A stretch of DNA of 64,000 nucleotides from NCBI RefSeq assembly GCF_016903815.1, contig NZ_CP069973.1; one strand, given 5' to 3'. The notes under the pieces are model-generated. The model was not told the DNA's origin. It made no database searches and worked only from the letters and a program-made list of their open reading frames with translations. The DNA is from Escherichia coli. GTDB taxonomy: Bacteria > Pseudomonadota > Gammaproteobacteria > Enterobacterales > Enterobacteriaceae. Both the position numbers and the translations under genes were made by a program. Numbering within the stretch: position 1 is the first letter of the stretch; every line of letters starts with the position of its first letter. Shown here one piece after another: positions 49,848 through 50,900 of the stretch.

Positions 49848-50900
49848 GTGAACATATATATCGGGTGGCTTTTCAAATTAATCCCTTTAATTATGGGCTT
49901 AATTTGTATCGCGTTAGGTGGCTTTGTGCTGGAAAGTTCTGGGCAAAGTGAGTATTTCGTCGCGGGTCATGTGCTGATTTCTCTGGCAGCCATATGCCTG
50001 GCATTATTCACTACCGCATTTATTATCATTTCGCAGCTCACGCGCGGCGTTAATACGTTTTACAATACATTGTTCCCCATTATTGGCTATGCGGGGTCAA
50101 TTATCACCATGATATGGGGTTGGGCACTGTTAGCAGGCAATGATGTGATGGCAGACGAGTTTGTTGCCGGCCATGTTATTTTTGGCGTTGGTATGATTGC
50201 CGCCTGTGTATCGACAGTGGCAGCGTCATCCGGTCACTTTCTGCTCATTCCCAAAAACGCAGCAGGGAGCAAGAGCGATGGAATACCGGTACAGGCTTAT
50301 TCGTCATTAATCGGTAATTGCCTCATTGCCGTTCCCGTGTTACTCACCCTGCTCGGTTTCATTTGGTCTATTACGCTGTTACGTAGTGCCGACATAACTC
50401 CGCATTATGTCGCCGGTCACGTATTGCTTGGGTTAACCGCAATCTGTGCCTGTCTAATTGGCCTTGTTGCCACAATCGTCCATCAAACACGTAATACGTT
50501 CTCATCCAAAGAACACTGGCTGTGGTGTTATTGGGTTATTATTCTCGGCTCAATCACGGTGCTGCAGGGCATATACGTGTTAGTCAGCTCCGATGCAAGC
50601 GCCCGACTGGCTCCCGGCATTATCCTCATTTGCCTCGGAATGATCTGTTACAGCATATTCTCAAAAGTCTGGCTACTGGCACTGGTCTGGAGACGTACCT
50701 GTTCGTTAGCCAACAGAATACCGATGATTCCCGTCTTCACCTGCCTGTTTTGCCTTTTCCTGGCATCGTTTCTTGCGGAAATGGCGCAGACCGATATGGG
50801 ATATTTTATTCCTTCGCGGGTTCTGGTCGGTTTGGGAGCGGTATGCTTTACGTTGTTCTCAATCGTTTCAATATTAGAAGCGGGTTCTGCTAAAAAATAA
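49848..50900 (+). CDS. yhiM: inner membrane protein YhiM (DUF2776)
   Basis: Track ORF 49749..50900; GTG at 49848 with gagga RBS gives 350 aa. Confidence 0.8.
   Translation: MNIYIGWLFKLIPLIMGLICIALGGFVLESSGQSEYFVAGHVLISLAAICLALFTTAFIIISQLTRGVNTFYNTLFPIIGYAGSIITMIWGWALLAGNDVMADEFVAGHVIFGVGMIAACVSTVAASSGHFLLIPKNAAGSKSDGIPVQAYSSLIGNCLIAVPVLLTLLGFIWSITLLRSADITPHYVAGHVLLGLTAICACLIGLVATIVHQTRNTFSSKEHWLWCYWVIILGSITVLQGIYVLVSSDASARLAPGIILICLGMICYSIFSKVWLLALVWRRTCSLANRIPMIPVFTCLFCLFLASFLAEMAQTDMGYFIPSRVLVGLGAVCFTLFSIVSILEAGSAKK

Follow-up and report, generated by a model that had tools for sequence, protein, structure and literature searches.

In homopentamers of the MscL/CorA type, five hairpins of two transmembrane (TM) helices each surround an axis, and one helix of every hairpin lines the pore. 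In the TehA/SLAC1 architecture, five such hairpins, ten TM helices in all, make up a quasi-five-fold barrel of two layers. The present analysis concerns YhiM of Escherichia coli, a DUF2776 family protein encoded by the gene yhiM in a 64,000-nucleotide stretch of contig NZ_CP069973.1 (assembly GCF_016903815.1; this whole stretch is called the window below). By analogy, YhiM looks like a covalently fused assembly of the MscL/CorA type, with the difference that the latter consists of five separate identical subunits whereas YhiM is one chain of 350 residues with diverged units; the general Pfam scan and the fold search gave no match between YhiM and the MscL/CorA families. The family TehA/SLAC1/SLAH/Mae1 (PF03595) has no detectable sequence relationship to YhiM, and the template modelling score (TM-score) between the folds is about 0.4. 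We know of no report describing the TehA hairpins as sequence repeats, whereas YhiM keeps repeats that are detectable in its sequence. In SLAC1 the pore is formed by the odd helices and the even ones are outside (PMC11260165), whereas in YhiM the even helices would form the inner ring, so that the order of the layers is apparently swapped. SLAC1 and TehA also have a conserved Phe that gates the pore, on a kinked pore helix, and assemble as homotrimers. Finally, the barrels and toroids designed de novo (sc-CC-6/7/8, dTor_9x57R/cTRP9, DHR81, MC7BP34) are soluble, contain six to nine repeats and have no evolutionary relation to YhiM; the latter occurs in nature, resides in the membrane and has five repeats.

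YhiM is described as a protein of 350 residues and 10 TM helices implicated in acid survival, export of γ-aminobutyric acid (GABA), growth when high temperature is combined with low osmolarity, and copper/Cpx stress (PMC6604978, PMC11005409); fitness in urinary tract infection is a further phenotype. The protein and its family are thus already known, and a model with five central helices has been remarked on in passing (PMC11288890). The DUF2776 literature searched describes neither a five-fold sequence repeat, nor a Cys in each unit, nor the H/H/H/(C)/R ring presented below. Added here are the five-fold repeat, backed by statistics, the residues that are constant from unit to unit, the finding that the copy number is fixed, the absence of a sequence relation to TehA and the probable swap of layers.

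A five-fold repeat of two-helix hairpins

An earlier note on this DNA had pointed to a motif present at least three times in YhiM, with a degenerate fourth copy and a conserved His in each repeat, and had proposed a membrane protein that arose by internal duplication. All three strings quoted in that note were located, a recurrence well beyond chance: the pattern x[FY]VAGHV occurs exactly three times (residues 36, 104 and 186), as does the pentapeptide VAGHV. The degenerate fourth copy is real, and beyond it there is a fifth, also degenerate, at residues 319–333. Judged from the alignments, the repeat is larger than the motif noticed first: it is the whole two-TM hairpin of about 65–70 residues, present in five copies rather than three or four and accounting for all 10 TM helices, which supports internal duplication more strongly than had been proposed. 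The units and the longest linker between them are:

49848..50045, + strand: unit 1, TM1 and TM2, residues 1–66; motif YFVAGHVLISLAAIC at residues 36–50 (nucleotides 49953–49997), with His41 and Cys50; from hhalign and model helices 3–29 and 34–64
50046..50249, + strand: unit 2, TM3 and TM4, residues 67–134; motif EFVAGHVIFGVGMIAAC at residues 104–120 (nucleotides 50157–50207), with His109 and Cys120; from hhalign and the register
50250..50282, + strand: longest inter-unit linker, residues 135–145 (PKNAAGSKSDG), cytoplasmic; from model secondary structure and loop charges
50283..50495, + strand: unit 3, TM5 and TM6, residues 146–216; motif HYVAGHVLLGLTAICAC at residues 186–202 (nucleotides 50403–50453), with His191 and Cys200; from hhalign, MAFFT and the model
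50496..50702, + strand: unit 4, TM7 and TM8, residues 217–285; degenerate motif RLAPGIILICLGMIC at residues 253–267 (nucleotides 50604–50648), with Ile258 for His, and Cys267; from hhalign
50703..50897, + strand: unit 5, TM9 and TM10, residues 286–350; degenerate motif YFIPSRVLVGLGAVC (nucleotides 50802–50846), with Arg324 for His, and Cys333; from hhalign

Self-alignment of YhiM, the check proposed in the earlier note, gave a Smith-Waterman score of 142 (offset of at least 10) as compared with 42.7 ± 9.3 for 100 shuffles (z = 10.6), and within the E. coli sequence alone unit 1 aligned with units 2–5 at z = 6.3–11.4. For profile comparison, an alignment of 48 homologues (52–90% identity) was cut into five blocks containing two predicted TM helices each, with the unit boundaries listed above. 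Nine of the ten unit pairs compared by hhalign reached probabilities of 86–99% with scores of 32–84, namely U1-U3 (98.9%), U2-U3 (97.8%), U1-U4 (96.6%), U1-U2 (96.4%), U1-U5 (96.1%), U3-U4 and U3-U5 (94.9% each), U2-U4 (91.5%) and U4-U5 (86.2%). The weakest pair, U2-U5, had a probability of 23.9% and a score of 21.5, still z = 5 against block shuffles. Control comparisons with reversed profiles scored 8–12 (probability 0.1–0.7%), and profiles shuffled within 12-column blocks, which preserves composition and the layout of TM segments and loops, scored 11–14 ± 3, placing the true unit pairs at z = 5–20. The hhalign alignments keep one register from the odd helix through the turn to the even helix, spanning 53–65 columns, and MAFFT fits 60 unit sequences into 71 columns. 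At the DNA level, no repeat was found in yhiM beyond matches of 12–16 nt expected by chance, and the copies differ in their codons. As the repeat is seen in the protein and not in the DNA, the duplications are, on this evidence, ancient and preserved at the protein level.

The number of copies is fixed. A search of 1.84 billion representative proteins with a profile of the unit retrieved 255 proteins only (E ≤ 1e-3), and the best 150 of these were classed with unit-specific hidden Markov models (HMMs). Nearly all are colinear pieces of U1-U2-U3-U4-U5, the complete order being present in 18 of the 150, and the handful of unit calls out of order correspond to weak or overlapping matches. No free-standing hairpin and no other copy number was detectable among these best 150 of the 255 matches, and those short or odd matches that were inspected proved to be pieces, frameshifted versions or chimeras of full-length DUF2776 genes.

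Some individual database homologues have peculiarities of their own. In the metagenome-derived protein sets, P0250, P0267, P0172 and P0212 are frameshifted or chimeric and might be mistaken for stand-alone hairpin proteins: P0267 joins unit 1 to a soluble domain unrelated to the family, and in P0250 unit 5 is preceded by an Arg-rich N-terminus that is out of frame. P0173 (445 residues) is lengthened by a long low-complexity stretch inserted after unit 2 and before unit 3, and P0210 (495 residues) by a charged extension at its C-terminus.

Residue conservation within the units was counted over 61 sequences, non-redundant at 80% identity and ranging down to 30% identity to the E. coli protein. 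The motif His is kept in 47 of the 61 homologues in unit 1, in 55 in unit 2 and in 50 in unit 3; its equivalent is Cys (28 sequences), Tyr (9) or Ile in unit 4, E. coli having Ile258, and Arg in unit 5 (54/61). The His is consequently confined to units 1–3, contrary to the earlier suggestion that every repeat has one, and the five-fold position reads H, H, H, C/I, R (His41, His109, His191, position 258, Arg324). On the other hand, each unit has a Cys (C50, C120, C200, C267 and C333, each in 58–61 of the 61 homologues), and by these counts it is Cys, not His, that is the per-unit constant of YhiM. The stronger formulation, a single invariant Cys column across all units, was downgraded: the column in the MAFFT alignment depends on a gap of two residues in unit 2, which hhalign aligns ungapped, so that Cys120 moves from motif position 14 to 16. 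TM1 and TM9 each contribute one more invariant Cys (C20 and C302, respectively), at positions that correspond between units 1 and 5, and these two should be neighbours where the ring closes. The odd helices keep Pro (P13, P77, P163 and P295, in 56–61 of the 61 homologues; unit 4 has none) and Gly (G24, G91 and G241, in 59–61), and the even helices keep [FY]-V-A-G-H-V-L-x-G-L-x-A-I-C. In TM10, residues 328–344 form a run of 17 consecutive positions that are invariant among the 48 homologues.

Two side observations concern the same residues. YhiM is unusually rich in Cys, with 13 in 350 residues, seven of which (C20, C50, C120, C200, C267, C302 and C333) are invariant or nearly so and all located in TM helices. 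A divergent DUF2776 clade (P0212, P0229, P0267, P0170, P0173) has VAGPV in place of VAGHV in unit 1, that is, Pro for His41.

Topology, predicted fold and probable order of the helix rings

Topology and structure prediction were the other checks suggested in the earlier note. The turns within hairpins contain 9 D/E and 2 K/R, the loops between units and the termini 10 K/R and 3 D/E. This fits the positive-inside rule and the 10-TM topology with both termini in the cytoplasm (N-in/C-in) that has been published (PMC6604978). With two helices per unit, the units all point the same way, so that each even helix begins on the periplasmic side with its [FY]VAGH segment. AlphaFold2, run with the alignment of 48 homologues, gave a confident model of closed repeats with ten long helices and one short one (predicted local distance difference test, pLDDT, 88.9; predicted TM-score, pTM, 0.90); a short helix is predicted at residues 133–139, from the end of unit 2 into the start of the 135–145 linker. 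In this model the ten TM helices form a quasi-five-fold barrel of five hairpins and two layers, as in TehA/SLAC1; the hairpins of YhiM are predicted to close into a ring-shaped helical barrel of that kind.

A Foldseek search of the model against the Protein Data Bank (PDB) yielded no match at E ≤ 1e-3, and a sequence search of the PDB with the family profile none at E ≤ 1. Below the Foldseek threshold, the designed sc-CC barrels align with TM-scores of 0.41–0.47 and TehA with about 0.40, which makes TehA the nearest natural fold to the predicted structure. A 2024 design paper had already noted that its parallel barrels match the AlphaFold2 model of YhiM, "based on five central helices", and its supplementary tables list P37630 (YhiM) beside P50537 and P44741 (PMC11288890).

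Four indirect lines bear on which helices form the inner ring. The even helices have a low mean column entropy (0.98–1.26) and a small variability moment (0.04–0.21), as compared with an entropy of 1.42–2.14 and a moment of 0.41–0.44, indicating a clear variable face, in TM1, TM3, TM5 and TM7; TM9 is an exception among the odd helices. The second line is the invariance of TM10 mentioned above, and the third the position of Trp, 7 of 9 being in odd helices. The fourth is covariation by mean-field direct coupling analysis (mfDCA), which with 126 sequences and an effective number Meff = 52 is weak and was not relied on alone. Among its top 50 inter-helix couplings, depth-consistent pairs within hairpins number 7 as against 1.8 expected, those between neighbouring even helices 8 against 2.1, including the ring-closing TM2-TM10 pair 44-323, and those between neighbouring odd helices 2 against 1.7. 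In the top 100, the even-even pairs number 10 (4.3 expected, p = 0.01) and the odd-odd pairs 6 (3.4 expected, p = 0.13). Taken together, these lines make it quite probable that TM2, TM4, TM6, TM8 and TM10 form the inner ring.

Proposed function and competing explanations

The reading that we favour, with a probability of roughly 0.6, is that of a duplicated five-hairpin barrel acting most likely as a monomeric, pseudo-pentameric pore or facilitator. In this reading YhiM is a single polypeptide in which ancient internal duplication produced five tandem two-TM hairpins of the same orientation. In each hairpin an odd helix with its conserved Pro and Gly runs outward, a short turn of acidic character follows in the periplasm, and an even helix that starts with the motif runs back inward. 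The hairpins would close into a two-layer, pseudo-five-fold α-helical barrel with the TehA/SLAC1 kind of architecture and, the even helices being the putative inner ring, the half of the central axis nearer the periplasm would be built by the motif. His41, His109, His191, Cys/Ile258 and Arg324 would then form an ionisable ring a single helical turn beneath the periplasmic surface, and each even helix would hold a near-invariant Cys deeper in the membrane. The pore would serve a small solute, export of GABA at acidic pH being the published activity, and the His/Arg ring and the thiols may constitute an entrance or constriction sensitive to pH or to soft metals. This function is consistent with the impaired GABA export of a yhiM mutant at pH 5 and with the increase in export at pH 2.5–5.5 upon overexpression (PMC6604978).

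Several points weigh against this reading. The evidence for GABA transport consists of mutant and overexpression phenotypes, not of assays with purified protein. Deletion of yhiM in strain CFT073 leads to less cellular copper, induction of copA and activation of Cpx, and the authors ascribe the copper phenotype to Cpx activation and copA induction, not to transport, copper import not being abolished in the mutant (PMC11005409). Designed five-helix barrels have very narrow lumens (PMC11288890), so that the centre of YhiM could be plugged. Moreover, in units 1 and 3 the motif His, at position 5, and the motif Cys, at position 14, are spaced i+9 and thus lie on opposite faces of the helix, which prevents both from lining a single narrow pore; the spacing in unit 2 is i+11. 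The order of inner and outer rings and the facing of His and Cys towards the lumen are themselves inferred. The TehA alignment was too shallow to serve as a test case for the conservation-based assignment of rings, and the same mfDCA (Meff = 52) also shows an odd-odd cluster between TM5 and TM7. Finally, the neighbourhoods of DUF2776 genes are not conserved and give no functional hint: no conserved neighbour gene was found in six lineages (Bordetella, Microbacterium, Nonomuraea and three metagenomic contigs). Linkage to gadBC has been reported in Clostridium perfringens (PMC6604978).

Some of these points can also be read in favour of a closed, plugged barrel that serves as a scaffold or sensor, its conserved Cys/His/Arg core binding a ligand or a soft metal such as Cu(I) or undergoing redox chemistry, and that, instead of conducting a solute, signals to the envelope stress machinery by restraining CpxA. 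Activation of CpxAR by deletion of yhiM is independent of NlpE, copper resistance of the mutant needs CpxA/CpxR, and yhiM is regulated by CueR and CpxR (PMC11005409), all of which would suit a sensor, as would the seven family-invariant Cys in the membrane core and the finding that designed five-helix barrels are too narrow for dye binding (PMC11288890). However, loss or overproduction of YhiM alters GABA export (PMC6604978), the nearest natural fold is that of a channel and transporter family, activation of Cpx is a common indirect effect of perturbing the inner membrane, and in the six lineages no partner gene is conserved beside the DUF2776 genes. We regard a sensor or scaffold as the main rival, though an unlikely one.

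YhiM could, on the other hand, be a very divergent homologue of TehA/SLAC1/Mae1 (TDT, PF03595), that is, an anion or dicarboxylate channel with a pore lined by odd helices. Both have 10 TM helices as five N-in/C-in hairpins, and the Pro of the odd helix is found at equivalent positions in four of the five YhiM units (P13, P77, P163, P295); the pore helices of TehA are Pro-kinked. Foldseek with the designed barrels returns YhiM alongside P50537 and P44741, presumably Mae1 of Schizosaccharomyces pombe and TehA of Haemophilus influenzae. Nevertheless, hhalign of DUF2776 against a TehA profile gives a probability of 0.3%, with a TehA alignment that is shallow (at least 81% identity), and homology to TehA by profile-profile comparison was rejected at this alignment depth. 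PF03595 is matched neither by YhiM at E ≤ 1 nor by any of the 48 homologues at E ≤ 10, and the Foldseek TM-score is only about 0.40, with nothing at E ≤ 1e-3. Conservation, the Trp belt and covariation, moreover, favour even helices on the inside, the opposite of SLAC1, and we consider such a relationship quite improbable.

Convergence, in which the motif would recur owing to packing and composition of Gly/Ala/Leu-rich TM helices and without duplication, was tested and is highly improbable: TM helices of like composition often match spuriously and the DNA of yhiM holds no repeat, but the units share one register over two helices and a turn and survive the reversed and block-shuffled controls (z = 5–20), VAGHV recurs exactly three times and the Pro and Gly of the odd helices align as well.

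To return to the pore or facilitator, it may be taken further and DUF2776 viewed as an independently evolved, single-chain, pseudo-pentameric channel, in which the layer order is inverted with respect to TehA/SLAC1 and an H-H-H-(C)-R ring at the periplasmic mouth, together with the near-invariant thiols of the membrane core, acts as a gate or selectivity filter sensitive to protons, Cu(I) or both. This extension is speculative and, in our estimation, rather doubtful. If it were true, an inverted-order channel with pore helices running from periplasm to cytoplasm would unify the acid, GABA-export and copper phenotypes. The favoured reading already provides a concrete, testable, channel-like model and a short list of residues (H41, H109, H191, position 258, R324 and the near-invariant Cys of each unit), and a natural closed α-helical repeat barrel whose repeats are visible in the sequence bears both on protein design and on how pseudo-symmetric membrane proteins evolve. 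As a whole, the analysis usefully refines the picture of a protein already known, and its interest is modest.

Locus, transcript ends and family distribution

The single long open reading frame (ORF) on the + strand between 49848 and 50900 is yhiM. RefSeq annotates the coding sequence (CDS) of a DUF2776 domain-containing protein with identical coordinates and the same GTG start. The Pfam profile PF10951 (DUF2776) spans the protein end to end (residues 1–347 on profile positions 1–347 of 348; 528 bits, with a gathering cut-off of 26.1 bits; E = 1.6e-158) and is matched by 48/48 aligned homologues, and no NCBIfam model matches YhiM. Several E. coli chromosomes are 100% identical to the locus over 1501 nt, and the flanks are as expected, with two DUF4049 genes (yhiJ and a paralogue) on one side and yhiN-pitA on the other. 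The features of the locus are:

47876-49549, - strand: upstream neighbour, ORF of 557 residues, within which RefSeq places a shorter DUF4049 CDS (about 530 residues)
49826..49847, + strand: 5′ untranslated region of yhiM, with the transcription start A at 49826 and a GAGG Shine-Dalgarno sequence at 49836-49839; from the sequence and PMC6604978
49848..50900, + strand: yhiM CDS, DUF2776 family inner-membrane protein with 10 TM helices, GTG start, 350 residues and stop codon; from the ORF and its translation
50908..50962, + strand: terminator-like hairpin followed by a U-run, just past the yhiM stop; from RNA folding
51215-52417, - strand: yhiN, NAD(P)/FAD-dependent oxidoreductase, downstream neighbour of yhiM, followed by pitA

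The DUF4049 CDS in the region of the 557-residue ORF is one of two adjoining paralogues, the other being yhiJ. The GTG start of yhiM and its transcription start, an A located 22 nt upstream of the GTG, were mapped by primer extension (PMC6604978); position 49826 was assigned to this published start by a mapping made in the present analysis. The hairpin at 50908-50962, between the convergent genes yhiM and yhiN, has a folding energy of -22.7 kcal/mol (z = -4.45, no shuffle being equally good), and inverted repeats 3′ of yhiM have been mentioned (PMC6604978). A scan for the consensus terminator pattern found none after yhiM; it missed this hairpin because the loop has 10 nt.

In-frame ATG codons upstream of the GTG (window 49749-49847) extend the ORF to 383 residues from 49749 or 364 residues from 49806, and the 364-residue form is the representative of a database cluster of 4700 members (P0001). 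As both starts lie upstream of the published transcription start at 49826, the longer N-termini probably reflect errors of annotation. The copper study reports a strain-specific "N-terminal MXXXM motif" in YhiM (PMC11005409); translated from the GTG, the protein begins with MNIYIGW and has no MxxxM near the N-terminus.

A search with the full-length protein retrieved 661 relatives of YhiM, including proteins from α- and β-proteobacteria and from actinobacteria. Other Pfam matches (YtpI-like, BK_channel_a, holins, cytochrome b561) are all below threshold and were taken as compositional. The YtpI-like profile PF14007 matches at residues ~198–266 (window ~50439-50645) in 21 of the 48 members, with a best E = 2.3e-4 below the gathering score; this match, too, is probably compositional, though it recurs more than the other weak ones. 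Searched by megablast among 5426 complete E. coli genomes, the yhiM locus (window 49600-51100) is present in 4255 (~78%), always on the chromosome, and is therefore common, not universal, in this species, although the literature calls yhiM core.

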